Below are positions 4,455 through 60,222 of a DNA stretch of 64,000 bases, piece after piece. The stretch is from assembly GCA_043817155.1 (NCBI GenBank), contig JBDRHE010000085.1:1464-65463 (forward strand), in the 5' to 3' direction. How positions within the stretch are numbered: the first letter of the stretch is position 1; every line of letters starts with the position of its first letter. The translations under genes were made by a program, and so were the position numbers. Under the pieces are notes generated by a model. That model searched no databases. It was not told the origin of the DNA and saw only the letters and a program-made list of their open reading frames with translations. This DNA is from Candidatus Omnitrophota bacterium (GTDB taxonomy: Bacteria; Omnitrophota; Gorgyraeia; JABMRN01; RBG-13-46-9).

Positions 4455-4532
4455 CGGGGAGTAGCGCAGCCTGGCTAGCGCGCTTGCTTCGGGAGCAAGA
4501 GGTCGCGGGTTCGAATCCCGCCTTCCCGACCA
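4455..4532 (+). tRNA. tRNA-Pro (anticodon CGG), CCA encoded
   Basis: Manual fold: acceptor CGGGGAG/CTTCCCG (one GU pair), D-stem GCGC/GCGC, anticodon stem CTTGC/GCAAG with loop TTCGGGA, T-arm GCGGGTTCGAATCCCGC, discriminator A, then CCA. Confidence 0.85.
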
Positions 4533-9779: not shown

Positions 9780-9885
9780 GTCATTCCCGCGGAAGCCTGC
9801 CCGCCTGCGGCAAGCAGGCAAGCGGGAATCCAGACGAAACTCTCGCCTGGATCCCCGCTTGCGCGGGGATGACATGTGAGAAAAG
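9780..9885. repeat. GC-rich double-hairpin intergenic repeat element, copy A (second copy at 60144..60222)
   Basis: GTCATTCCCGCG...GCGGGAATCC (ATTCCC...GGGAAT hairpin, here with a 27-nt insertion), then GGATCCCCGCTTGCGCGGGGATGACATGTGAGAAAAG; near-identical to 60144..60222. Confidence 0.65.
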
Positions 9886-16394: not shown

Positions 16395-18494
16395 ATGATA
16401 CAACGTGTTACTAAAATGATAGACAAGAACGAATTAATCATCGAAACCGGGAGGATCGCAAAACAGGCGGACGCTGCAGTTACTGTACAAATGGGCGATA
16501 CAGTTGTGCTTGTCACCTGCGTATGTTCCAAGGGAGTGAGGACAGGCATAGACTACCTTCCATTGATGGTCGAATACAGGGAGAAGACTTACGCTGCCGG
16601 AAAGATACCCGGAGGCTTCTTCAAGAGAGAGGGCAGGCCATCCGAAAAAGAGATCTTAACAGCCAGGCTCATTGATAGGCCCATAAGACCCCTTTTCCCT
16701 GAGGATATGATCAATGACATACAGGTGGTCTCTATGGTACTCTCGAGCGACGGGGAGAATGATTCAGACATACTGGCAGTGATCGGGGCATCGTGCGCGC
16801 TCTCAATTTCCGACATACCGTTTGATGGCCCTATAGGCTGCGTTCGCATCGGGATGATTGATGATAAGTTCGTTATTAATCCAACGTTTCAGGAAATGGA
16901 GATGAGTGCGCTGGATCTAGTCATTGCGGATCACAAGGGCAAGACCATCATGATAGAAGCTGGCGGGAAGGAATTGACCGAAGAAAAGATCGAAGAGGGT
17001 TTCGATTATGCGCAAAAGTATCTGAAAGAGATAGCTGGCTTGCAGAGCGAATTGGTCGCAAAGTGCGGGAAGAAGAAGCGTGAAGATATAGTGATAAGAA
17101 GAGCCGGTGAGGAACTGCTCCTTAAAGTAAAAGAGGCTTCGCAAGACAGGCTAAACGAGATCAATAAGCTGAGCCTGAAAGATCAGAGGGAAGAGGCTCT
17201 CACCATGCTGACCAAGGAGCTTGTTGAGAAATTTGTTACGAAAGAGGGCTCTGTTGAGACGTGGGAGGTTAAGTCTGCCCTTGATTCTCTCGAGAAGGAA
17301 GTGGTAAGAAGCCACATGTTAAAGAGCGACAAAAGGATCGATTCAAGGACATATAAAGATATCCGGCCTATAGAATGCAGCGCAGGTTTTTTGCCGCGTA
17401 CTCACGGATCAGGGTTATTCACCAGGGGTCAGACGCAAGCTCTTTGCGTAACTACATTAGGAACGAGCGCCGATGAGCAGAGGATAGATGCTTTAGAAGG
17501 GGAGACACAAAAATCCTTTATGTTGCATTACAACTTTCCATCATTTAGCGTGGGCGAGGTAAAACCTTTCAGGGGACCGGGTCGTCGGGAGATCGGACAT
17601 GGTGCTCTTGCGGAAAAAGCCTTAAAGCCTGTTATGCCTTCCGGGGAGACATTTCCCTATACCGTCAGGATAGTTTCAGATATACTTGAATCGAATGGCT
17701 CAAGCTCCATGGCCTCCGCGTGCGCTGCGTCCATCTCCTTGATGGATGCCGGTGTCCCGATCAAATCGTCGGTCGCCGGGATCGCTATAGGACTTGTATC
17801 GAAGGGAGATCAGCGCGTGTTCCTGACCGACATAGCAGGCCTCGAAGATCATTATGGAGATATGGATTTTAAGGTTGCCGGCACAAGGAACGGGATCACA
17901 GCTATACAAATGGATCTTAAGATCAAGGGCCTGGATAAAGAGGGGCTTAAGGAAGCCCTAAGCATGGCCAGGGAAGCCCGTTTTAAAGTGCTTGATATAA
18001 TGGATGGCGTTATATCGACACCGAAGGAGAGTATTTCGGATTTTGCACCTCGCATTGTCAATCTTAAGGTTAACCCTGAGAAGATCAAGGATATCATAGG
18101 GCCCGGTGGTAAAATCATCAAGAAGATCATACGCGATTACGGCGTTACTGTTGATGTTGATGATGACGGCAGCGTCCAAGTTGCATCAAACGATGAGAAA
18201 GCTATACAGGCCGCTATTGATGTTATAAAGGGGCTTACCGCTTCTGTTGAAGTGGGGAAGATATATTCGGGTACGATCACGCGTATAATGAATTTCGGAG
18301 CTTTTTGCGAGATCCTTCCCGGGAAAGAGGGGCTTATCCATGTGTCGGAACTTGCAAACAAATTTGTTAAAGAGGTGACACAAGAAGTAAATGTCGGAGA
18401 TAAGGTAAATGTTAAAGTAATTGAGATCGATCAACAGGGTAGGGTCAACTTAAGCAAGAAACAGGCGGAGGCGACAGAGGGTGATCCCAGTTAG
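16395..18494 (+). CDS. pnp: polynucleotide phosphorylase
   Basis: 699 aa; two RNase PH domains, then KH and S1 domains (GKIYSGTITRIMNFGAFCEI). Confidence 0.95.
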   Translation: MIQRVTKMIDKNELIIETGRIAKQADAAVTVQMGDTVVLVTCVCSKGVRTGIDYLPLMVEYREKTYAAGKIPGGFFKREGRPSEKEILTARLIDRPIRPLFPEDMINDIQVVSMVLSSDGENDSDILAVIGASCALSISDIPFDGPIGCVRIGMIDDKFVINPTFQEMEMSALDLVIADHKGKTIMIEAGGKELTEEKIEEGFDYAQKYLKEIAGLQSELVAKCGKKKREDIVIRRAGEELLLKVKEASQDRLNEINKLSLKDQREEALTMLTKELVEKFVTKEGSVETWEVKSALDSLEKEVVRSHMLKSDKRIDSRTYKDIRPIECSAGFLPRTHGSGLFTRGQTQALCVTTLGTSADEQRIDALEGETQKSFMLHYNFPSFSVGEVKPFRGPGRREIGHGALAEKALKPVMPSGETFPYTVRIVSDILESNGSSSMASACAASISLMDAGVPIKSSVAGIAIGLVSKGDQRVFLTDIAGLEDHYGDMDFKVAGTRNGITAIQMDLKIKGLDKEGLKEALSMAREARFKVLDIMDGVISTPKESISDFAPRIVNLKVNPEKIKDIIGPGGKIIKKIIRDYGVTVDVDDDGSVQVASNDEKAIQAAIDVIKGLTASVEVGKIYSGTITRIMNFGAFCEILPGKEGLIHVSELANKFVKEVTQEVNVGDKVNVKVIEIDQQGRVNLSKKQAEATEGDPS

Positions 18495-18539
18495 ATCCAG
18501 GATGGATTGGCGGGAAAACACAACTTAGAAAGAGATCTA
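18481..18539. repeat. ~57-nt repeat overlapping the pnp stop codon (second copy at 23605..23661 overlapping the rimO stop)
   Basis: Copy 1: GTGATCCCAGTTAGATCCAGGATGGATTGGCGGGAAAACACAACTTAGAAAGAGATCTA. Copy 2: GTGATCCCCGTCAGATCCAGGATGGATTGGCGGGAAGACATGACCTAGAAAGGATCTA. AGATCC...GGATCT terminal inverted repeat. Confidence 0.7.
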
Positions 18540-22269: not shown

Positions 22270-23607
22270 ATGAAGCCTGACATATTTATAATTAGCCTGG
22301 GCTGTCCGCGTAATCTTGTGGATTCAGAGGTCTTAATAGGCATGTTGCGGCAGAAGGGTTTTAAGGTCTTTACTGAGTTTACAAAAAATCGCATTGCTAT
22401 AGTGAACACATGCGGGTTTATTGAGGATGCCAAGAGCGAGAGCATTGACATGATCCTCGAGCTGGCAGCCCTGAAGAGAGATGGCAGGCTCGAACATCTT
22501 ATAGTGACAGGCTGTTTTTCACAGCGTTATTCCGATCGCATATTGAAGGAGATAGGAGAGGTCGACGGTATATTCGGGTGTGGCAGTTTTACCGAGATCC
22601 CCGAGTTTATAAACCGTATAGCCGCCGGCGAGAAAGTGGTAAATGTAGATAAGAGGCCGAAGTTCCTATATAACCACACCATGCCAAGAGCGGTCTTAAC
22701 TCCAAGGCACAGCGTGTATGTTAAGATCCAGGAAGGGTGCATGAATCTCTGCAGCTACTGCGTTATTCCTAAAATAAGGGGTCCATACCGCTCAAGAAGC
22801 ATCGACTCTGTTCTAAAGGAGGTATTGCTACTTAAGGAAAGCGGGGCCAGGGAGATAAACCTTGTCGGGCAGGATACGACTCTCTACGGGACCGAGAGAT
22901 ATAAAGCGCCTGTTTTGGGTAAATTGTTAAGGAAGGTATCCCGTATTATGAAGGACGGCTGGGTAAGGCTACTCTATACCCATCCGGCGCACTATGATCA
23001 GGATATAATAGATGCCGTAAAAAATGAGACTTCGATATGCAAATACCTTGATCTGCCGATACAGCACATAAACGACAAGATACTCAAATCGATGAACAGA
23101 CACGTAACCAAGGGAGAGATCGTTGAACTTATAGAGAAGCTTAGACGGTCCATACCGGAAGTTGCGATCCGGACATCGATAATAGTAGGCTTTCCGGGTG
23201 AAGGCGATAAAGAGATGGATGAACTTGCACGCTTTTTAAAGGAGGTTGAATTTGACCGCCTGGGGGTCTTCACATACTCCCGGGAAGAGGGGACGAAATC
23301 CTTCGATCTTCCGGGTCAGGTTGCCGAAGACGAAAAAGAGAGACGGTTAAAGAGGATAATGGAGCTTCAGCAAGATATTTCAGAGAAGCTGAACAGGAGA
23401 TCACTGGGTAGTGTGGTCAAGGTACTCATCGATGATAAGGATAAGACCGAAGCCAACCTGTATTTGGGAAGGACCCAGCACGATGCGCCCTCTGTCGACG
23501 GCACCGTTTATGTACATTCAAAAAAGAGACTGAAGCAAGGGGACTTTGTAGACGCGAAAATAATAGATACACTGGAATACGATCTTGTTGGCAAAGTGAC
23601 ATTGTGA
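22270..23607 (+). CDS. rimO: ribosomal protein S12 methylthiotransferase RimO (radical SAM MTTase)
   Basis: 445 aa; MTTase N domain (ISLGCPRNLVDSE), radical SAM CxxxCxxC (CMNLCSYCVIP), C-terminal TRAM. Confidence 0.75.
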   Translation: MKPDIFIISLGCPRNLVDSEVLIGMLRQKGFKVFTEFTKNRIAIVNTCGFIEDAKSESIDMILELAALKRDGRLEHLIVTGCFSQRYSDRILKEIGEVDGIFGCGSFTEIPEFINRIAAGEKVVNVDKRPKFLYNHTMPRAVLTPRHSVYVKIQEGCMNLCSYCVIPKIRGPYRSRSIDSVLKEVLLLKESGAREINLVGQDTTLYGTERYKAPVLGKLLRKVSRIMKDGWVRLLYTHPAHYDQDIIDAVKNETSICKYLDLPIQHINDKILKSMNRHVTKGEIVELIEKLRRSIPEVAIRTSIIVGFPGEGDKEMDELARFLKEVEFDRLGVFTYSREEGTKSFDLPGQVAEDEKERRLKRIMELQQDISEKLNRRSLGSVVKVLIDDKDKTEANLYLGRTQHDAPSVDGTVYVHSKKRLKQGDFVDAKIIDTLEYDLVGKVTL

Positions 23608-23661
23608 TCCCCGTCAGATCCAGGATGGATTGGCGGGAAGACATGACCTAGAAAGGATCTA
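23605..23661. repeat. second copy of the ~57-nt repeat, overlapping the rimO stop codon
   Basis: See 18481..18539; 47 of 57 positions identical by eye, in an equivalent position relative to a gene stop codon. Confidence 0.7.
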
Positions 23662-43928: not shown

Positions 43929-44759
43929 ATGAAGACAGTAGTTAAGCCGCTTATAATAGCGGTGATTTGTTTGGGTATAGTCGTTCCTTATGAATCATGC
44001 CTTGCTGACATGCGTAAAAATACGCTAAAAACGAAGGAGATAAAGGATATTCCGAGCAGATCAGTAGAACAGCTTGAAAGACTGCTTACGAGCAAAGCGG
44101 AGGTTGTATCAAAGAAAAACGCCGTTTCCAAAGAGATTCAGAACGAAAAGGAGTCCAGGGAAGAGTCTTCCAAAAAGGAACTATTAAGCAAATCCCCAAA
44201 AGGCATAAATTTAGTAGTAGCCCCAAACACGAACAAAGAAAAACTAGCCCTTAAGGAACTGTTTTTTGGTAAACAACCTAAGGATGAGGTGCCTAACATA
44301 AGTAAGGATCTGTTGTTTAAAGACACTATTTCGGCCGATGACGGGTCCGTTTCTTCCTTGACAGGAGACCTTATTAAACCGCTTACCTATGAAGGCCGGA
44401 AAAAGGCGGATGATCCCGGGTTCTCTGTAGGGGCATATATTAAAAGCGTAGTTGAGATGAAAGAGATACCCCTTGAGAAAAACAAAGACACCATTGCAAA
44501 AGACTTGCCGGTTGAAATGAAGCCCTCTTTACAAAAAAAGAGTCTTATGGATAGCGAGCTTATAATACCCCTCAAAGGAGCTCGCAGATCAAGAAGTAGA
44601 CGCATTCTTAAGGATGAATATAACTACGATAATGAAGCACTGTCCGGGAATGGAAGAGGGCCCATAATGTATCGCCATTATGAGGACCACCCCTACATGA
44701 GACTGAATGGCGCTACAATTTCATACACTATCGAACGGAGAGAAACAAGCGTTAATTAA
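43929..44759 (+). CDS. secreted hypothetical protein
   Basis: 276 aa; signal peptide; K/E-rich; no recognised domain. Last plus-strand gene before the strand switch. Confidence 0.45.
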   Translation: MKTVVKPLIIAVICLGIVVPYESCLADMRKNTLKTKEIKDIPSRSVEQLERLLTSKAEVVSKKNAVSKEIQNEKESREESSKKELLSKSPKGINLVVAPNTNKEKLALKELFFGKQPKDEVPNISKDLLFKDTISADDGSVSSLTGDLIKPLTYEGRKKADDPGFSVGAYIKSVVEMKEIPLEKNKDTIAKDLPVEMKPSLQKKSLMDSELIIPLKGARRSRSRRILKDEYNYDNEALSGNGRGPIMYRHYEDHPYMRLNGATISYTIERRETSVN

Positions 44760-44772
44760 TCGTTGTTTATAA

Positions 44773-44828
44773 GCATAAATAAGCTCCTTAGGACCATCGC
44801 AGTGGCCACCCTAAGGAGCTTATTTATG
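44773..44828 (+). terminator. long perfect hairpin (19-bp stem) just after the 43929 gene; terminator-like
   Basis: CATAAATAAGCTCCTTAGG-N17-CCTAAGGAGCTTATTTATG; the loop contains a GTGGCCAC palindrome; followed by TAG rather than a clean T-run. Confidence 0.5.
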
Positions 44829-44919
44829 TAGAGGACGGCCGAAATCTGGCAGCGAAAACCACACATTTAAGATCTTAGCTCCTGTCAAGTAGGCCTAGAA
44901 ACCGCATGGAAATAGCACT

Positions 44920-44957
44920 GTAACAAATGTTACTTGAGGGCATGTAACATCTGTTAC
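44920..44957. promoter_or_regulatory. pair of 14-bp palindromes GTAACA-N2-TGTTAC, 24 bp centre-to-centre
   Basis: GTAACAAATGTTAC (44920..44933) and GTAACATCTGTTAC (44944..44957), both perfect palindromes; a degenerate pair recurs at 45445..45489. Confidence 0.55.
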
Positions 44958-45371
44958 TCGATGGTTTCATACAACTTCGGGGTTACAAGGCACAGCACTC
45001 GCCATTTCGTGATTCCATATTAGCGTCATTAACGGTCCGAAATAGGTTGATTACCTTAGGTAATGGTAACAGCCGATAGAAGGGAGAAAGGGCTCATAAA
45101 GAGGCCTCCAAGGCCTTAAAATGGCCAATGCCGTAGGCATAAAACAGATTGGTTGCTAATTGAATCGGGATCTAAAAAGTTCTACCTCCCACAATGCTCT
45201 TCATGCGATTATATCGATAAACCTCTATAATAGGTTATCCACAGGGGGAAAGCTTTAAATCGCCCAAAAAGAGCAAATTTCTACACCTTTGTCTATGTTC
45301 TCGCCAGACCAAGTACACCTTTGTTCGACTCCAAAACGCCTACTTATACACATTAGCCCCTCTTATCCCCA

Positions 45372-45399
45372 GCGTCCTATAATATATCTTATGTTAACT
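45372..45399. other. dif: dif-like XerC/XerD chromosome dimer resolution site (28 bp)
   Basis: GCGTCCTATAA-TATATC-TTATGTTAACT. Compare E. coli dif GGTGCGCATAA-TGTATA-TTATGTTAAAT and B. subtilis dif ACTTCCTAGAA-TATATA-TTATGTAAACT (both recalled from memory). The XerD arm matches 10/11. It lies in a 1-kb ORF-free region at a convergent strand-switch point. Confidence 0.65.
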
Positions 45400-45444
45400 A
45401 GGGCCTTAGGGGAGGGGAGGTTAGCATGTGTTCGTAGGGCCTAT

Positions 45445-45489
45445 GTAACAAATGTTGCGTTCGTCTTTATGCCATATAACAAATGTGTC
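45445..45489. promoter_or_regulatory. second, degenerate pair of GTAACA-N2-TGTTAC-like sites just right of dif
   Basis: GTAACAAATGTTGC (45445..45458; 13/14) and ATAACAAATGTGTC (45476..45489; 11/14). Confidence 0.4.
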
Positions 45490-45796
45490 GCGATCCCATA
45501 GTTTTAAGCGCTATTCAACGTTTATGCGTTAAACATATCCTATTAGGACGCACCGCCACTTTACTAAATATCCCCTATTCACTCAAGCCTTCAATAGCGC
45601 GTGATATAGAGGTTTATCTATATGATAGTGCCCCTATATATGTCTATTATTAACTACTTTGGGGTGGGTATTTGCTGCTTCTTTAGAAAGGAAATTCCGG
45701 GCTCGTTTAAATCGCGAGAGGTCTAATAAGCAACTCGGGGTATCGAAATATTACTGAATTCTTAACGGCTTAAGGCGTCTCTAATAAATGCTCTAA

Positions 45797-46447
45797 TCAA
45801 AGTTCGGATTCGATCTCGCGGATCAGGTTATCGACATCCTTTACAATCTGCGCAGGTAGCATTTTGGATATCTTAAGCTCCCTGCTGATGGACTTTAAAG
45901 CGCTCAGGAAGCGCTTAAGAATGGCTTGTTTCTTCTTTTTCCAAGCCTCTTCAGGCTGAAGTTCCTCGCGTTGCTTTATGAGGGCTGTAAGGTCCTTCTT
46001 TACATCCTTTGCGTCTTTCCCTTTTTGAAGAACGTTCTGCTTTATGGTTTCATATTCCTCTTTATCGATATCCTTCTTCTTGCTGGCAAGCCGTAGGGCA
46101 TCGACAGACTCATAAGTAGGCAGAGATGCAGCGGAAACGCCTTCATGGTAACCCTTGTTAAGGTACCTGGGCTCTTCTTTTTCAAGAAAATAGTATGACC
46201 TTAGCAACTTGAGAGCGGTCTGCTTCCGTATGCCTATCTCCTTTATGGCATATGCATCGAAAGTACCATATCCCCAGTCCCTGTACATCTTATCCTTCCA
46301 CACGGTGTGAAGAGCCTGTCCCAGATCTACCCAGGATGTTTTAAACGATTTGGCATTTTCCAGGATCTGATATCTAAGGGTCCCTTTGGCCACGTTTTCC
46401 ATCTTCTGTTCTAAGTTTTCTATGGTCTTAGTCTTAATAACACTCAT
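45797..46447 (-). CDS. hypothetical protein with predicted HTH; first minus-strand gene after the strand switch
   Basis: 216 aa; WKDKMYRDWGYGTFDAYAIKEIGIRKQTALKLLRSY helix-turn-helix-like segment; K/E-rich coiled-coil C-terminus; family not recognised. Confidence 0.5.
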   Translation of the reverse strand: MSVIKTKTIENLEQKMENVAKGTLRYQILENAKSFKTSWVDLGQALHTVWKDKMYRDWGYGTFDAYAIKEIGIRKQTALKLLRSYYFLEKEEPRYLNKGYHEGVSAASLPTYESVDALRLASKKKDIDKEEYETIKQNVLQKGKDAKDVKKDLTALIKQREELQPEEAWKKKKQAILKRFLSALKSISRELKISKMLPAQIVKDVDNLIREIESEL

Positions 46448-46983
46448 TTATCACCGCCTTTTTGAAAGCCTTATTTTTAGGGATAATATACTACATTGCA
46501 CTGAAAGAGTCAAATGAAAAAGATTCGAAGCATAATACATAAATTAGCACACCTGCCTGCCGGCCCACCTGTTTTTGTGCCCCCCCTCCCCCAGTTTGGA
46601 CGAAATGGGCAAAAACCGAGTTATACCTTGACATTTTAGCTATAATATGCTAATATTACAGCGTCTAAGGCGAATGGAACAAAGGATCTATTGGCGATTT
46701 TGTGGAATACAAGAACTGTTTGAACACGCACTGTTACTCACCAGTCAGCATCATACCATTCATGAGATCCCTAAACACATATTATAGGCCTGTTATATAT
46801 AACGTTATTTAAGTAGGTCATTGATTGAGGGTGCCCGCATGTAGGCGCCATTTCGTGTAATAGTGATAAAAAAGGAGGGTCAAATAGGTTAAGGAATAAG
46901 ATCGGTTTTTGTGTTTTAGGTGAACATTTTGTTCCGCATAAAGAATTATTTGATGCGGAAAACTAAGAAGGAGAATGAGAGAA

Positions 46984-47312
46984 TGGAACAAGTCAGTAAA
47001 TTGTACGTAGGCAACCTCGAATATTCAACAACAGAAGAAGACATTAAGGCTCACTTTGAGGAAAAAGGAATAAAGACAAAATCAGTAACCCTTATAAAGG
47101 ATAAATATACGGGTCGCGCAAAAGGTTTCGGCTTTGTAGAAGTGGAAACGGAATCGGAGATCGAAAAAGCGATCGAAGCACTGGACGGCCAGGACCTTAA
47201 GGGTCGCAAGCTTACAGTCAACAAGGCAAAGCCACCGAGAGAGCGATCAGACAATCCCAGAGGCGGCGGCGGAGGCGGATTTGGAGGCGGAAGAGGAGGC
47301 TCCAGGTTCTAA
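46984..47312 (+). CDS. RRM-type RNA-binding protein with glycine-rich C-terminus
   Basis: RNP2 LYVGNL and RNP1 KGFGFVEV motifs; RGGGGGGFGGGRGGS tail; ATG 46984 with AAGGAG SD. The 5' UTR has a CCGCAT-N13-ATGCGG stem-loop. Confidence 0.8.
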
Positions 47313-50430: not shown

Positions 50431-53256
50431 TTATGAAATAACCTTTAAGAACATATCCACGATCTGCGGGTCATACTTTGTACCGGACTCTTCCTTCAAT
50501 ATCTCAATGGCCCTCTCCTTGCTAAATGCTTTGCGATAGGGACGATCCGATGTTAACGCCTGGTAGGCATCGGCAATTGCTATTATCCTGGCGCCGATCG
50601 GTATATCTTCACCCTTTAGACCATTCGGATAGCCTTTCCCGTCCCACCTTTCATGGTGATCCAGGATAAGCGGAATTACGTCATGCAGATACCGAATAGG
50701 GCGTATGATATCCACGCCGATCTGCGGATGTCTCTTTATCTCTTCAAACTCTTCCGCTGTAAGGCTCGACCTCTTATTTAGGACGCTCTGTCTTATGCCT
50801 ACCTTTCCCAGATCATGCAATATGGAGGCCTTCTTGATCCGATCCACATCCTCCGTTGACAAGCGCATTATTTCGGCAAGCTCTGTAGCGTAGCGTACGG
50901 TTCTTTCTACATGGTCTCCCGTTTCAGGGTCGCTAACCTCTATGGTTCTGGCAAACGCGAAGATAGCTTCCATAAGGTTCTGGTTGGATTTCGTATTTAA
51001 TTTTTCTATCTTATTTTTCAAAAAGTCGGTATTGACATTTTCGGATGTTTCCGTTGTCGCCGCCTTCCTCTCCTTCGCATCTACAGATGTAAATACGTTA
51101 TTGCCCCCAAATTCCTTCGATTTACTAAGGATCTTATCAGCAAATGTAACAAGGTCCATAGCCTTAGAGATCGGATCCTCCGGGTATGAGCAAACAGCAA
51201 TGCTTATCTTAAGTTTAACACTGTATTCCCTATTCCCGAAATTGTATAAGTGTAGTGCATCCAGGAGCTTGCGGGCCAGGATCTTCTCACCGTTAAGATC
51301 TGTCCTCGGGGATATAACAAGAAACTCTTCCCCCCCGGAGCGAATGACAATATCATTACGCCTGACCAAGTTCTTTAGCTGGGATGCAAATTGTTTTAAT
51401 GCAAGATCCCCGAACTGGTGTCCATAAACGTCGTTTATCGATTTGAAATAATCCAGATCCACCATCAAGATCGATAAGGGGTAACCGTATCTCTTGGCGC
51501 GGTAGAACTCAGTTTCTATGACCGTTGTAAGATATCTGTAGTTAAATAGTCCTGTATGCGAATCTATTAAGACCAGCTGCTCGAGCTTCTTGTTAGACTT
51601 TAAGAGGTTCCTATTGGAGATCGCAAGTTTATTCTTCGTCTCTGTAAGTTCGCTTATATCCATAACAGAGATAAGGATCCGCGACCAGTCCTTCTCGTAC
51701 CCCGGCATTACACTGGCCTTAAGGTTGACTTTAAGCTTCTTGCCGCCTAAAGTCTTAGTGTAACAGTCGAATGCAAATCTTGTCTTGCCGTTCGCCAGGC
51801 TTATAAGCTCCTCCCTGAAAGCGTGGTACGATTCTTTAGTAAATATACGTGTTAATCCTCCCCAAAATTCCTTCTTGTCCTTTGCCTTGTAAAGATCCAG
51901 CGTTGCCTTGTTTACCTCTAATATCTTAACCATGGTCGCGCAGTCCGCGACATCTTCAGGATGTTCCTTAAAGTACTTTTCGAAATCGTCAACGCCACTA
52001 TCGCTTAATTTCGTAATGAACTTCTTGACATTTGAAAGGTCCTCCTCCCACAAGGAGACCGGAGAATTCTCAAATAGCGCCCTGAAACGCTTCTCACTTG
52101 TAAACAACCTCTCCTGCGCTTTTTTCCGTTCATATATATTACGAGCGGAGGCACAGTTGAATTCGTTTCCCTGTAGCTCCAGGTAATTCAATGATATCTC
52201 TACAGGAAATGACTCTCCTTCTTTAGTGCGATAAGTGGACTCGATGGTAAAAGACTTCTTGCGCTTGAGTTCCTTCCAGTGGCCCGGCCATACTTTCTTT
52301 GGGAATTCGGTATCGATATCGTGCACAGTCATGGAAAGCAGCTCGTCCGGAGTATAGCCTAAAGCATTGCACGCATTCTCATTTACGTATTTGAAGCGTC
52401 CATTCCGATCGATCAGAAATATCGACTCGGCAGCTTTGTCAACCAGATACTTTGAAAGCCTAAGCTCCCCTTCAGCGCTCTTACGCTCAGTAATATCCCT
52501 GAGGATAACTTGCATGACGGTCCTTCCACCGATATCAGCTACCGACGATGATATTTGGACGGGTTTAATCGTTCGGGTTTTTGTTATTATCTCAGCCTCA
52601 ACATCGCTTACCCCACCATTTTTCACCAGCTTTTTAAATAACTTGAGCTGCATATCTCTTGTTTTTGGAGGAAAGAGGACCGATTGATGCTTCCCTATTA
52701 TATGCCTCCGATTGCGTTCGAAAAGCTTTTCGGCTGCCAGGTTGCAATTGACCAGAGAGTGCGTACTGCCATCAACCCAGAAGATCGCATCCTTGGCATT
52801 TTCAAATATTGAGCGAAAACCCTCTTCACTCTTCAGCAGAGACTCCTCTGCGATCCTCCGATCGCTTATGTCTTCGCCTGAGCTAAGCGTGCCGATGATC
52901 ACATTCTTATCATCTCTTAAGACCTCGTTATGCCATGAGATCAATCTAAGCTTGCCCTTCTTCGCTACAACGGGATTAACGTAATACTCAAGAGCCTTGG
53001 TCTTTCCCGCCATCAAACCATTGAACGCCGCCTTTACCTGGTTCTTTATGCTTGCCGGAATGAAGTTGGCAAACCAGCCCTTATTAATGATCTCCTCTTT
53101 CCTGCGTCCCAGGATCTCGCAGCCCTTCCTATTAATGAGGGTAACATTGCCTTTATTGTTGAGAACGACTATCATCACACCGGCAACATCCAGATATTTC
53201 TGCGCCATATCCCTCTCACTATACAGTTGCGTGATGTCTAATATTTTATTATTCAT
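50431..53256 (-). CDS. cytoplasmic multi-PAS / GGDEF / HD-GYP signalling protein (c-di-GMP synthesis and hydrolysis domains)
   Basis: 941 aa; ~4 PAS/PAC modules; GGDEF domain with RxxD I-site and GGEEF (RRNDIVIRSGGEEF); C-terminal HD-GYP (ILHDLGK ... HHERWDGKGYP). Confidence 0.85.
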   Translation of the reverse strand: MNNKILDITQLYSERDMAQKYLDVAGVMIVVLNNKGNVTLINRKGCEILGRRKEEIINKGWFANFIPASIKNQVKAAFNGLMAGKTKALEYYVNPVVAKKGKLRLISWHNEVLRDDKNVIIGTLSSGEDISDRRIAEESLLKSEEGFRSIFENAKDAIFWVDGSTHSLVNCNLAAEKLFERNRRHIIGKHQSVLFPPKTRDMQLKLFKKLVKNGGVSDVEAEIITKTRTIKPVQISSSVADIGGRTVMQVILRDITERKSAEGELRLSKYLVDKAAESIFLIDRNGRFKYVNENACNALGYTPDELLSMTVHDIDTEFPKKVWPGHWKELKRKKSFTIESTYRTKEGESFPVEISLNYLELQGNEFNCASARNIYERKKAQERLFTSEKRFRALFENSPVSLWEEDLSNVKKFITKLSDSGVDDFEKYFKEHPEDVADCATMVKILEVNKATLDLYKAKDKKEFWGGLTRIFTKESYHAFREELISLANGKTRFAFDCYTKTLGGKKLKVNLKASVMPGYEKDWSRILISVMDISELTETKNKLAISNRNLLKSNKKLEQLVLIDSHTGLFNYRYLTTVIETEFYRAKRYGYPLSILMVDLDYFKSINDVYGHQFGDLALKQFASQLKNLVRRNDIVIRSGGEEFLVISPRTDLNGEKILARKLLDALHLYNFGNREYSVKLKISIAVCSYPEDPISKAMDLVTFADKILSKSKEFGGNNVFTSVDAKERKAATTETSENVNTDFLKNKIEKLNTKSNQNLMEAIFAFARTIEVSDPETGDHVERTVRYATELAEIMRLSTEDVDRIKKASILHDLGKVGIRQSVLNKRSSLTAEEFEEIKRHPQIGVDIIRPIRYLHDVIPLILDHHERWDGKGYPNGLKGEDIPIGARIIAIADAYQALTSDRPYRKAFSKERAIEILKEESGTKYDPQIVDMFLKVIS

Positions 53257-53390
53257 TTTTTCTTTCTAAATAACTCCCGTTTTCAAAAAAACACCTTGAT
53301 TTATTTTAACATGCAAACAAAAGGAATCCTACAACTATTTGACAATTATTACACTGACTTTATACAGTTTATCAGCTTTGATTGCACATC

Positions 53391-53550
53391 CGCCTGCCAT
53401 TGCGAGTACGGGCGGGCAGGCCCGCCTGCCATTGCGAGTACGGGCGGGCAGGCCCGCCTGCCATTGCTAATACGGGCGGGCAGGCCCGCCTGCCATTGCT
53501 AATACGGGCGGGCAGGCCCGCCTGCCATTGCTAATACGGGCGGGCAGGGA
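53391..53550. repeat. tandem direct repeat, 5 x 32 bp (CGCCTGCCATTGCGAGTACGGGCGGGCAGGCC), each unit with a GGCAGG/CCTGCC mini-palindrome
   Basis: Unit starts at 53391, 53423, 53455, 53487, 53519. The first two units have GCGAGTAC, the last three GCTAATAC; no spacers between units. Confidence 0.85.
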
Positions 53551-53575: not shown

Positions 53576-53995
53576 TTACTCTCCGATAATTTTTACAAGT
53601 ACGCGCTTACGCCGGCGTCCATCGAATTCACCGTAAAAGATCTGTTCCCACGGTCCAAGATCCAATCTCCCTTTAGTTATAGCGACAACTACTTCTCTCC
53701 CCATAATAGTTCGCTTCAAATGAGCGTCAGCGTTATCTTCCCCTGTAAGGTTGTGTTTATATTGGGATATGGGCGCGTGAGGGGCGAGTCTCTCGAGCCA
53801 TTTATCGAAATCGCTATGTAGCCCATCTTCGTTATCGTTGATGAAACATGAGCTCGTAATATGCATAGCATTTACAAGGCAGAGGCCCTCTTTTATGCCG
53901 CTTTTTGTGATAATTTCCTGGACGTCGTGGGTTATATTTATGAATTCGCGCTCGTTCTTAGTGTTAAACCAGAGATAGTCGGTGTGGGTTTTCAT
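53576..53995 (-). CDS. yjbQ: YjbQ/UPF0047 family protein (secondary thiamine-phosphate synthase-like)
   Basis: 139 aa; [15 protein letters not shown]...[13 protein letters not shown]...DLGPWEQIF, characteristic of YjbQ. Confidence 0.7.
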
Positions 53996-56347: not shown

Positions 56348-56480
56348 TTCGTCTTTGCGAGGTGCCGTAAAAAGCTAGCGCACCGAAGCAATCTCAAGCT
56401 AGCTCGATGAGATTGCCTGCCTAGCGGCAAGGCCGCTGGCTTCGGCACGCTCGATTATTCCGGTGCCTCGCAAAGACGAG
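56348..56480. repeat. ~130-bp inverted-repeat element with nested palindromes (MITE- or sRNA-like)
   Basis: Arms TTCGTCTTTGCGAGGTGCCG (56348..56367) and CGGTGCCTCGCAAAGACGAG (56461..56480). Inner GCGCACCGAAGC/GCTTCGGCACGC and AATCTCA-AGCTAGCT-CGATGAGATT. Shares GGCAAGGCCGCTGGC (56426..56440) with 60256..60270. Confidence 0.6.
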
Positions 56481-57761: not shown

Positions 57762-58853
57762 TTATATTCGAAAGACGGAATCGAAATCGCCGTATGGGTT
57801 CTTTTCCTTTTCCGTATTTTCAGGATCCCAGAGCCAAAGTCCATCAGCCACAAACTTATATCTGTACCGGCCGGGCAAGAGGTATATGGACTTCTCCCAA
57901 TTGCCTTCTTCACTCCTTATAAGCTTGCTCGCAACATCGACCTTCCAATCATTAAAATCCCCGACAACATAGACGTCATTGGCCTTCGGGGCGAACAATT
58001 TAAAGATCTTCTCTTTTGAATAGACATTACCGTAAGCCCCATGCATTATCTTGCGCATCTCCTGATAGACGCTCTTAGCCGATTCCTCACTGTCGCGCAC
58101 AAGGAGCTCTTCTGCCATTGCCAGGTAATCATGAGCTGCCCTCGACTCAGCATACTCGGTAAATATCGACTGTGTCTTCTCCTGCGCTTGCCGCACGGCT
58201 GTATCGAAAGAGATCATCGCGGAAAAAAGTTTCTCTTTAAATATATACTTGATCTTAGCAAGCATCTTTATGGAAAAATCGGAATACTCATCGTACATAA
58301 CTACCAGGCCCCTTAAGTTGGGGGCGTGATGTAGCTTTATCTTGATGAGCTCGACCATGCTGATCAATTTCCCGACACCCATTATAGCGAATGCGCTCGT
58401 CTCTACGGGTATTATGATCTCGCCGGCTGCCCTGAGAGCATTAAAGGTCAAGAATCCCAGGTTAGGAGGGCAGTCGATAACAATATAGTTGTAGTCAGGG
58501 GCGCATCGCATAATAGCCCGTGAAAGTATTAAGAGACCGTCCTGCCTCTCTTTCAGATCCTGCTCTATGGTGCTGAGTATAATATGAGAAGGGACCAGAT
58601 CCAATCCCCTCTCCAGGTTTATGGATATATCGTCGATCTTCTTTATCTTCTCCGGATCGTTCGTAAATAATGTGACTATGGACTTGAATGGGTCGACCTT
58701 TAGAACCCCAAGCCCTATCGTGGCGTGCGATTGTGGATCGAGGTCTATGAGGAGAACGTTCTTGCCTTTCTTTGCCAGGGCAGCAGCGAGGCATGTAGCA
58801 GTGGTGGTCTTTCCACAACCACCTTTTTGATTAGCTATTGCGAATATCTTCAT
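57762..58853 (-). CDS. ParA/MinD-type P-loop ATPase fused to a C-terminal CBM48 / AMPK-beta-type glycogen-binding domain
   Basis: 363 aa; deviant Walker A KGGCGKTT, ParA-like core to ~aa 255, then VYVVGDFNDWKVDVASKLIRSEEGNWEKSIYLLPGRYRYKFVADGLWLWDPEN matching the V.V.G.FN.W...L...G.W...L.PG.Y.YKF.VDG.W..DP pattern of AMPK-beta GBD/CBM48. Confidence 0.75.
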   Translation of the reverse strand: MKIFAIANQKGGCGKTTTATCLAAALAKKGKNVLLIDLDPQSHATIGLGVLKVDPFKSIVTLFTNDPEKIKKIDDISINLERGLDLVPSHIILSTIEQDLKERQDGLLILSRAIMRCAPDYNYIVIDCPPNLGFLTFNALRAAGEIIIPVETSAFAIMGVGKLISMVELIKIKLHHAPNLRGLVVMYDEYSDFSIKMLAKIKYIFKEKLFSAMISFDTAVRQAQEKTQSIFTEYAESRAAHDYLAMAEELLVRDSEESAKSVYQEMRKIMHGAYGNVYSKEKIFKLFAPKANDVYVVGDFNDWKVDVASKLIRSEEGNWEKSIYLLPGRYRYKFVADGLWLWDPENTEKEKNPYGDFDSVFRI

Positions 58854-60143: not shown

Positions 60144-60222
60144 GTCATTCCCGCGCAAGCGGGAATCCATGGTGGGGCTCGTCTGGATCCCCGCTTTCGC
60201 GGGGATGACATGTGGGAAAAAG
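60144..60222. repeat. GC-rich double-hairpin intergenic repeat element, copy B
   Basis: GTCATTCCCGCGCAAGCGGGAATCCA (ATTCCC-N8-GGGAAT hairpin with GCAA loop) then GGATCCCCGCTTTCGCGGGGATGACATGTGGGAAAAAG; homologous to 9780..9885; intergenic between purL and purQ. Confidence 0.65.

Follow-up and report, generated by a model that had tools for sequence, protein, structure and literature searches.

Between yjbQ and a gene for a cyclic di-GMP (c-di-GMP) signalling protein, a 64-kb stretch of DNA from a Candidatus Omnitrophota bacterium (contig JBDRHE010000085.1 of assembly GCA_043817155.1; the whole stretch is called the window below) carries five 32-bp hairpin units in direct succession. This configuration raises a question: Are the repeats a device for controlling the signalling gene, as had been proposed in a reading made from the sequence alone, or did they come to occupy this spacer for reasons of their own? 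The explanation that we favor, with a probability of roughly 0.6, is that the array is a locally amplified cluster of a miniature hairpin element resembling repetitive extragenic palindromic (REP) sequences and small dispersed repeats (SDRs), and that any effects on yjbQ or the GGDEF gene would be a by-product of its RNA hairpins. Three observations lie at the base of this explanation: the array itself, its membership of a family of units that crosses the boundaries of phyla, and the signatures of mobility that this family displays.

The array and its relatives in other genomes

The array lies at positions 53389-53548 on the plus strand and consists of five 32-bp units arranged head-to-tail without spacers in the order AABBB, five being the count assembled in a short-read metagenome-assembled genome (MAG). 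Tandem Repeats Finder (TRF) delimits it at 53390-53548 with a period of 32, 5.0 copies, 98% matches and no indels, and its score of 290 makes it by far the strongest tandem repeat of the window, the runner-up scoring 70. Matches to the 32-mer with at most two mismatches are found at 53391, 53423, 53455, 53487, and 53519, versus none in 100 dinucleotide-preserving shuffles. The spacerless repetition noticed in the sequence-only reading is thus real, as is its division into two units of one variant and three of another: units 1 and 2 are of variant A, GCGAGTAC, and units 3 to 5 of variant B, GCTAATAC.

The register used here was set by comparison with related loci and runs from a left end, CCCGCCTGCC, to a right end, GGCGGGCAGG, giving the consensus 5'-CCCGCCTGCC-ATTGC(G/T)A(G/A)TACG-GGCGGGCAGG-3' with a middle of 12 nt. 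Unit 1 (53389-53420), which begins with TCCGCCTGCC, and unit 2 (53421-53452) share the middle ATTGCGAGTACG; units 3 (53453-53484) and 4 (53485-53516) have the middle ATTGCTAATACG; unit 5 (53517-53548) ends in GGGA where the other units have GGCC and is followed by GATTTTGTG. The two ends form an imperfect inverted repeat (8 of 10 positions) of shifted tetramers, CC-CGCC-TGCC and GGCG-GGCA-GG, and can pair perfectly over 6 bp in two registers, CCCGCC/GGCGGG or CCTGCC/GGCAGG, which ViennaRNA uses interchangeably. The tandem junctions fold too, as GGCAGG-CCCG-CCTGCC or as GGCGGGC-AG-GCCCGCC, and the mini-hairpin that had been read at the junctions is present, in the first of these forms, at all of them. 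The array is also the biggest GC-rich island of a window with about 45% G+C. The predicted fold of a 201-nt region reaches -119 kcal/mol on the plus strand (z -6.8 vs. shuffles) and -99.4 kcal/mol on the minus strand (z -3.2), and the DNA fold of a single unit lies between -6 and -7.5 kcal/mol.

Could such regularity be a product of assembly, a repeat collapsed or expanded in a short-read MAG? The record has a single contig for this MAG, and short reads cope poorly with an exact 32-bp periodicity. Yet, given the AABBB variants and the unique flanks, no k-mer longer than about 97 nt occurs twice, so that large-k assemblers can resolve the array, and a like architecture is found in many independent assemblies, including a single-amplified genome (SAG) and megabase contigs. 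We consider an artefact the least probable of all the explanations discussed here.

Relatives were sought in a collection of 596 Gb of species-representative genomes and in metagenome records of the Joint Genome Institute (JGI). The exact unit, CCTGCCATTGCNNNTACGGGCGGGCAGG, has no match in either the genome or the metagenome contigs, even with three free positions. Conservation of the unit elsewhere, a point on which the sequence-only reading had laid weight, therefore fails for the exact 32-mer but holds for its two ends, which define a widespread family. The related loci, designated by L numbers, were found with the 20-mer of the tandem junction, GGCGGGCAGGCCCGCCTGCC, and amount to at least 120 loci in genomes. 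About half of the matches listed for this 20-mer come from low-GC MAGs and SAGs carrying units of the form CCCGCCTGCC-middle-GGCGGGCAGG; these units are complete, often stand two or more head-to-tail, and often occur on several contigs of one MAG. High-GC matches, from Streptomyces, Methylobacterium, and others, were discarded as chance, being single matches inside coding sequence.

Among the matches listed, 103 units have exact ends and as many as 85 distinct middles; between the same two 10-nt ends the middle is free, from 0 to about 100 nt, with only weak preferences for A at +1, GC at +4/+5, and T at -1, and unit lengths peak at 30, 33, 36, and 40 bp with a maximum of about 115 bp. Arrays of one, two, three, and four units number 64, 20, 2, and 1, respectively, among these matches; the window array was scored as the four-unit case because its first unit, with the one mismatch of TCCGCCTGCC, was not counted, and with its five units it is the largest of those listed. 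Its closest relative among them belongs to an Omnitrophota SAG (L110) and comprises 3 x 33 bp of CCCGCCTGCC-ACAGATAATACAT-GGCGGGCAGG followed by GATTC, the window counterpart having the middle ATTGCTAATACG followed by GATTT.

Judging from record titles, the hosts (MAGs and one SAG) represent at least 10 bacterial phyla. They include many Bacteroidota, Desulfobacterota, Planctomycetota, seven lineages of Patescibacteria or the candidate phyla radiation (CPR), low-GC MAGs labelled 'Gammaproteobacteria', Chloroflexota (Dehalococcoidia), Acidobacteriota, Neomarinimicrobiota, and Victivallales, in addition to at least four other Omnitrophota contigs, one of which is a single-cell genome. The unit pattern also matched 32 viral contigs, about a third of which have a high GC content and are probably chance hits. 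When plasmid and phage records were searched by BLAST, the only matches were chance ones of 19-24 nt in high-GC replicons.

What accompanies the units in these hosts? All-against-all clustering of 923 open reading frames (ORFs) near units gave no recurrent neighbor protein, the clusters being generic families plus one phage module in synteny, and a Pfam scan of 148 proteins near units found no family in more than two members. A search between orphan ends for gene-carrying elements found none above about 200 bp, except for one chance pair 4.4 kb apart. With neither a recurrent protein nor gene-sized cargo, the units are therefore non-autonomous. Where the flanking genes are co-directional, the units lie in sense in 17 cases and in antisense in 17, an absence of bias that argues against a strand-specific RNA function in general. 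Rfam models at gathering threshold, applied to 18 related loci, overlapped no unit; elsewhere in these loci they identified tRNAs, a single RNase P RNA, and one domain of a group II intron.

Constant 10-nt ends conserved over phyla around free middles look as if a protein reads the ends, and the array might then be a series of protein-binding sites. Each junction offers a 16-bp near-palindrome of 7+2+7 form, GGCGGGC-AG-GCCCGCC, and the exact 32-bp spacing of these junctions, about three helical turns, would align dimers of a regulator, a nucleoid protein, or a recombinase of the family on one face of the helix; the lack of strand bias also fits. Yet solo units, which have no junction, are the commonest form (64 of the 87 arrays among the matches listed), no DNA-binding protein recurs near the units, and the near-identity of the five window units indicates recent duplication rather than maintained sites. 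We find this explanation quite unlikely.

Regarding the stem itself, a compensatory variant CCAGCC...GGCTGG has both partners of a T:A pair changed in the CCTGCC/GGCAGG register, which constitutes a single event in three copies. Three loci of one Bacteroidota MAG (L013, L023, and L073) carry a variant unit, CCCGCCAGCC-N16-GGCGGGCTGG, with one stem pair changed on both sides and nested in a standard unit. A covariation scan of viral contigs with degenerate ends was weakly informative, being dominated by the generic perfect palindromes (C:G) of high-GC DNA.

Signatures of mobility at related loci

Precise filled and empty sites come from the viral contig L145, which has a dispersed repeat of about 60 nt. 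Two of its copies contain a 33-bp unit, with CACAGA on one side and GG on the other, two further copies are uninterrupted, and there is no target duplication. Units also interrupt each other. A 36-bp unit that contains a nested 33-bp unit in L131 is intact in L124, L129, and L145, and a 33-bp unit that contains a nested 27-bp unit in L130 and L148 is intact at the orthologous site of the related L152. A further locus, L133, has a 30-bp unit at the site orthologous to that of L130, L148, and L152, between phage structural genes, and in all these four loci a separate terminator-like hairpin, CCCCTCTTA..TAAGAGGGG, directly follows the unit.

Genes for tRNA provide a second group of sites. In L102 (2118-3085), arrays of two and three units lie exactly between GGGATTC and AAACCCC, namely in the T-loop of copies of tRNA-Arg(ACG), and an intact copy of the gene stands between the two interrupted ones. 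The acceptor stem of the interrupted copy is valid and differs from that of the intact one (CAGGTCC vs. CAGGCTC), so that this copy is no simple recent duplicate. In L065 (3940-4100; 4526-4599), a full-length tRNA is interrupted in its D-loop by a pair of units; its 53 nucleotides to either side of them match an intact paralogue about 500 bp away with 100% identity. L020 and L110 show a like interruption in T-arm fragments that adjoin tRNA genes. Elsewhere the relation is inverted and a whole tRNA lies between two unit ends, 11-15 nt from each: tRNA-Pro CGG in L037 (3954-4068), and tRNA-Ala CGC and tRNA-Arg CCT on the minus strand of L115 (6408-6529 and 6721-6829). When read by eye, L003 (from about 2307 onward) and L093 probably have a whole tRNA within a unit as well, of which ARAGORN confirms that of L093 only, finding none in L003. 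The tRNAs inside units of these four loci are always antisense to the unit, and over all tRNA cases the unit is antisense in eight of nine, a small sample. They appear to be either content of the element or genes flanked by a conserved paired leader and trailer.

These tRNA cases invite a different explanation, in which the paired ends mark a segment that is cut from transcripts, in the manner of an intron-like module, so that the window array would be a processing site between cistrons. It would account for units in the D- and T-loops and around whole tRNAs, for full-length tRNA genes with arrays in their loops (including the L102 copy with its valid acceptor stem), for the leaders and trailers next to paired ends in L037 and L115, and for the predominance of the antisense orientation, small as the sample is. 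If the units inside tRNA genes were removed from the transcript, a possibility only, they would represent a new kind of bacterial tRNA intervening sequence. But an intact paralogue accompanies the interrupted tRNAs of L102 and L065, so that the interrupted copies may be dead; the units have no orientation bias relative to protein genes, and no endonuclease or ligase recurs near them, with one RtcB among the 148 neighbor proteins. As an account of the window array we hold RNA processing to be very unlikely.

Two further features of the family concern the borders of its arrays. Tandem repeats with a period of 5-9 bp lie within 40 nt of a border in 23 of 115 arrays, compared with 8.5 expected at random positions of the same loci. 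Units with different middles abut precisely in L052, L083, L005, and L067, which suggests that joining takes place preferentially at the ends themselves, while the identical neighboring units of the window, L110, L053, L066, and L111 suggest local duplication. What filled sites, nested units, and split tRNAs have in common is that the units appear to have entered loops, in structures that DNA can adopt when single-stranded, and on this comparative evidence the units apparently behave as mobile DNA.

How, then, would the window array have arisen? One unit or a pair would have landed in the spacer between yjbQ and the GGDEF gene and would have been amplified in place by slipped-strand events, unequal recombination, or repeated end-to-end insertion, with AABBB as the outcome; it is from this order that we infer stepwise duplication in place. 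The mobilizing enzyme would not be encoded nearby. It could be of the HUH/RAYT type, namely that of the REP-associated tyrosine transposases (RAYTs), or of the IS200-IS605 type, or else belong to a small site-specific recombination system; an enzyme acting on folded single-stranded DNA is suggested because the targets are hairpin loops and tRNA genes and no target duplication occurs. The array probably makes no difference to its host or is of mild use to it. On the minus-strand transcript, the block of GC-rich hairpins may slow read-through from yjbQ and shield the 3' end of the yjbQ message, as REPs do, the signalling gene then depending on a promoter of its own in the 134-nt AT-rich spacer. 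REP hairpins have been proposed to impede both RNA polymerase and 3' exonucleases (PMC3733652).

Several points weigh against an amplified mobile element. The sample of related loci is biased, since it was selected by the exact tandem junction; lone 32-nt units barely beat shuffles in folding (z -0.6 to -1.5); data on the host's own genome comprise the 64-kb window, which shows one array and one degenerate relative only. No empty allele of the yjbQ-GGDEF array locus was found in the collections, in which the nearest homologue of the signalling protein is 47% identical, and neither the window ORFs scanned, nor the neighbors of units, nor the search between orphan ends linked a transposase or recombinase to the family. 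The conservation of the 10-nt ends across phyla could, moreover, stem from some role in the host, for example as a signal for processing or as a site to which a protein binds.

A bolder formulation, which we advance tentatively and with more doubt than conviction, is that of a cross-phylum super-family of ultra-small mobile 'cassettes': the ends CCCGCCTGCC and GGCGGGCAGG would suffice for a trans-acting enzyme, anything between them, from 0 to about 100 nt up to a whole tRNA gene, would travel, and insertion would proceed without target duplication into single-stranded loops, those of tRNA D- and T-arms, of REPs, and of the units themselves, with end-to-end joining of units. If the family is what it seems, few known mobile DNAs would be as small as its 20-40-bp elements. 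The sharing of the same 10-nt ends by at least 10 phyla, including Bacteroidota, Desulfobacterota, Planctomycetota, Patescibacteria, and Omnitrophota, as well as by phage contigs, would point either to a host function that is conserved or to a widespread enzyme whose substrate is folded single-stranded DNA. There would be practical consequences too. The family breaks assemblies, as many matches lie at contig ends, and it creates spurious ORFs; the short plus-strand ORFs over the window array are by-products of a repeat without stop codons, its 32 bp not being a multiple of three. By interrupting or carrying tRNA genes, the family also bears on tRNA annotation and on how bacteria tolerate or process such insertions.

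The yjbQ-GGDEF spacer and the rest of the window

Both genes around the array are on the minus strand, to which the array is antisense. Upstream in the direction of transcription is yjbQ (53576-53995), encoding a UPF0047/YjbQ-family protein of 139 aa (Pfam PF01894, E 3.5e-38); downstream is the gene of a PAS-PAS-PAS-GGDEF-HD-GYP protein of 941 aa (50431-53256; Pfam HD_5 7e-41, GGDEF 1.1e-35, PAS_9 5.8e-31). In order of transcription one meets the yjbQ stop codon, 25 nt, the array, about 134 nt of AT-rich DNA, and the ATG of the signalling gene, and the array takes up half of the 319-nt intergenic space. The distance of 25 nt from the yjbQ stop had been given correctly in the sequence-only reading; its figure of about 300 bp to the start of the signalling gene is too large, being nearer to the whole 319-nt spacer. 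The AT-rich part (53257-53388) is most likely where the signalling gene's own promoter should be located, and it also contains a sigma-70-like site that faces the array, TTGACA-N18-TACAGT on the plus strand (53339-53368). The promoter scan returned five sites versus 2.5 +/- 1.6 in shuffles, which is not significant.

Does this position make the array a regulator? The proposal was that of a dedicated cis-regulatory or terminator array with a copy number that varies as in variable-number tandem repeats (VNTRs), in which the number of hairpins would set the read-through from yjbQ into the signalling gene or the stability of its 5' untranslated region. Part of it stands. The array forms hairpins; it lies between two genes of the same strand, filling half of their spacer; its RNA folds strongly on the minus strand (-99 kcal/mol, z -3.2); the duplicated loci of the related array in L102 differ in copy number, three versus two; and the AABBB order, as expected from stepwise local duplication, makes a VNTR-like dynamic plausible. 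The other part does not stand, for we see no tie between the array and the c-di-GMP gene. The minus strand has no U-tract after the hairpins and the terminator scan calls nothing; family units lie beside unrelated genes, in tRNA genes and on phage contigs, with orientations balanced at 17:17; and the array matches no riboswitch or known cis-regulator. We therefore regard dedicated regulation as unlikely. The repeats are probably not a bespoke regulator of the neighboring c-di-GMP gene, and effects on the expression of either flanking gene would follow incidentally from the inserted hairpins. The idea of a dedicated VNTR regulator is only partly supported, and we see no evidence of selection for control of c-di-GMP signalling by the array.

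Known RNA elements were considered and rejected individually. For an intrinsic terminator, the minus-strand hairpins are followed by CGUAUUAGCAAU or UGUGCAAUC, without a U-tract, the plus strand has only GAUUUUGUG, and the scan calls none on either. For a c-di-GMP (GEMM) riboswitch or another cis-regulatory RNA, Rfam at E <= 10 returns sub-threshold matches only, to nhaA-II (24 bits, with 70 needed) and to miRNA models.

The plus strand might alternatively encode a small RNA (sRNA) of about 190 nt that is composed of five repeats and acts as a sponge or in antitoxin-like fashion. The TTGACA-N18-TACAGT site (10 of 12 matches) ends 21 nt before the array, the last unit is immediately followed by the short T-run GATTTTGTG, and the plus-strand fold is stronger than the minus-strand one (-119 vs. 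-99 kcal/mol). But promoter-like sites are no more frequent than in shuffles in this AT-rich region; the T-run is not called by the terminator scan, no toxin or partner gene follows on the plus strand, where yjbQ is convergent, no Rfam model matches, and other family members have no comparable flanks. We judge an sRNA highly improbable.

The 25 ORFs scanned between 33 and 64 kb of the window are chromosomal genes of an ordinary kind, such as purL, purQ, guaA, uvrD, a parA-like gene, a pair for an extracytoplasmic function (ECF) sigma and anti-sigma factor, PilZ, and RNase T, and there are no cas, transposase, or integrase genes among them. NCBI has a protein with 100% identity to the signalling protein, from a Candidatus Omnitrophota MAG. 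Since the next relative is only 47% identical, no orthologous spacer is at hand for comparison, and a look-up by exact protein, made for both YjbQ and the signalling protein, gave no other contig on record. Flanks made of tRNA fragments, as at L110, L102, and L020, were sought beside the window array and not found, the sole tRNA of the window being at 4455-4532, and TRF reports no heptamer repeats beside the array.

Other palindromes occur in the window, and one of them touches the family. Two REP-like hairpin dimers, copy A at 9780-9875 and copy B at 60144-60209, have the form GTCATTCCCGC-GCAA-GCGGGAATCCA ... TGGATCCCCGC-TTKC-GCGGGGATGAC and fit the CGTC-1/dRS3 type of tagged REPs, with an 8-bp stem, a 4-nt loop, a CCA tail, and a TGTC variant of the tag (PMC3733652). 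The first hairpin loop of copy A contains about 27 extra GC-rich nucleotides, including CCTGCCCGCC and a one-mismatch version of the other unit end. This is a probable degenerate relative of the unit (9796-9826, minus strand), CCCGCTTGCC-TGCTTGCCGCA-GGCGGGCAGG, with one mismatch in its left end, and copy B on the plus strand, which has no GC-rich insert, is the 'empty' counterpart of copy A. The likeness in composition that had been pointed out for 9794-9820 thus proves justified, since the 10-mer CCTGCCCGCC is common to that stretch and to the units.

An intergenic hairpin of about 131 bp at 56349-56479, with 41-nt arms of 80% complementarity, begins with CGTCTTTGCGAGG and ends with CCTCGCAAAGACG, so that each end bears a CGTC/GACG tag; it resembles a miniature inverted-repeat transposable element (MITE) or a REP dimer. 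Directly upstream of the gene for a ParA/MinD-like ATPase (57762-58853, minus strand), the AT-rich segment 58850-59160 is dense with short tandem repeats (TTGAAATACAA x5, AGCYYTA x5, and ATATCAA motifs), which could be iterons or a centromere-like site. At about 44000-47000 the cumulative GC skew peaks and the genes switch from the plus strand on the left to the minus strand on the right; the window may therefore span a convergence point resembling a replication terminus. Finally, a 52-nt direct repeat with 88% identity is present at 18481-18532 and 23604-23655, 5.1 kb apart.

Comparison with known repeat systems

In the search for precedents, the two 10-mers, used as literature queries, brought up nothing but primers and eukaryotic sequences, and keyword queries returned papers on REPs and SDRs and no description of the CCCGCCTGCC/GGCGGGCAGG family, both being weak searches from which subscription journals were largely missing. 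The family may be undescribed. A resemblance to CRISPR arrays is superficial to this extent: 32 bp is a typical repeat length, the units are partly palindromic and head-to-tail, and in L052 and L083 a constant 20-bp junction alternates with variable middles, but the window array has no spacers and the 'spacers' elsewhere measure 0-100 nt and are often identical. No Cas domains are encoded by the window ORFs scanned, none recur near units, and Rfam gives no CRISPR-DR match, so that a CRISPR array was rejected. The antitoxin RNAs of type III toxin-antitoxin (TA) systems, such as ToxI, likewise derive from spacerless tandem repeats of about 32-36 nt, with a promoter-like site upstream on one strand. 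Repeats of the ToxI, CptI, or TenpI kind were rejected as well, for no endoribonuclease toxin gene of the ToxN/AbiQ type follows on either strand, and downstream lie the PAS-GGDEF-HD-GYP gene on the minus strand and, on the plus strand, the antisense of yjbQ.

Outside bacteria, the GC clusters and double-hairpin elements of fungal mitochondria are GC-rich, palindromic, and non-coding sequences of 30-50 bp that stand out in AT-richer DNA and show insertion polymorphism. They differ from the present units in being organellar and of different sequence, some of them with short target duplications, and no homology is implied.

The SDRs of cyanobacteria come closer. SDRs, of which SDR4 to SDR6 are the ones compared here (Elhai et al. 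2008), are reportedly nested, found beside heptamer tandem repeats, and without a linked transposase. We know of no SDR in which fixed ends enclose a free middle, which inserts in tRNA loops, or which has tRNA genes as its content. At the level of the family, the features of SDR type that we found are precise filled and empty sites, nesting, and the context of 5-9 bp tandem repeats (23 vs. 8.5 expected). Papers citing that work present the SDRs of Nostocaceae as very small, hairpin-related elements of about 20-30 nt with precise insertion (PMC4390886) and as sequences of about 20 bp, possibly mobile, that occur in tandem in varying copy number (PMC2884548), and one of them gives them as reported from Nostocaceae only (PMC5861425). 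The CCCGCCTGCC/GGCGGGCAGG family is cross-phylum, the window host belonging to Omnitrophota.

The nearest comparison overall is with REPs and the bacterial interspersed mosaic elements (BIMEs) that they form, with their tagged palindromes of GTAG or CGTC type (PMC3733652; REPINs, PMC3116915). Like the units described here, these are GC-rich, hairpin-forming, and non-coding sequences of 20-40 bp, mostly intergenic, with a short unpaired motif beside the stem; they occur as singletons, dimers, and clusters in several phyla, sometimes in tandem, and are regarded as mobile DNA in miniature with a second activity, that of RNA hairpins downstream of genes. The 32-bp unit, with its perfect 6-bp stems, has the size of a REP stem-loop. 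No RAYT (Y1/HUH) gene is among the 25 window ORFs scanned, and no family is found in more than two of the 148 proteins near units. The tag differs, since the unpaired end motif is CCCG, with GGCG internal, instead of GTAG or CGTC, and a GACG variant appears in a few 21-bp units of other genomes only. Stems are of 8-9 bp in REPs and of 6 bp, in two alternative registers, in the CCCGCCTGCC/GGCGGGCAGG family; the loops of CGTC REPs are fixed at 4-5 nt, whereas the middles here are free, from 0 to about 100 nt or a whole tRNA gene; and head-to-tail succession, the typical cluster form of the family, is 'negligible' among the dimers of CGTC REPs (PMC3733652). Unlike REPs, moreover, the family keeps the same 10-nt ends in at least 10 phyla. 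As to copy number, REPs are multi-copy, and the window has its one array and one degenerate relative while other genomes have units on several contigs. As copies of a very small hairpin element that is apparently mobile in bacteria of at least 10 phyla, the five repeats look like selfish DNA that has accumulated between two genes rather than a purpose-built switch.

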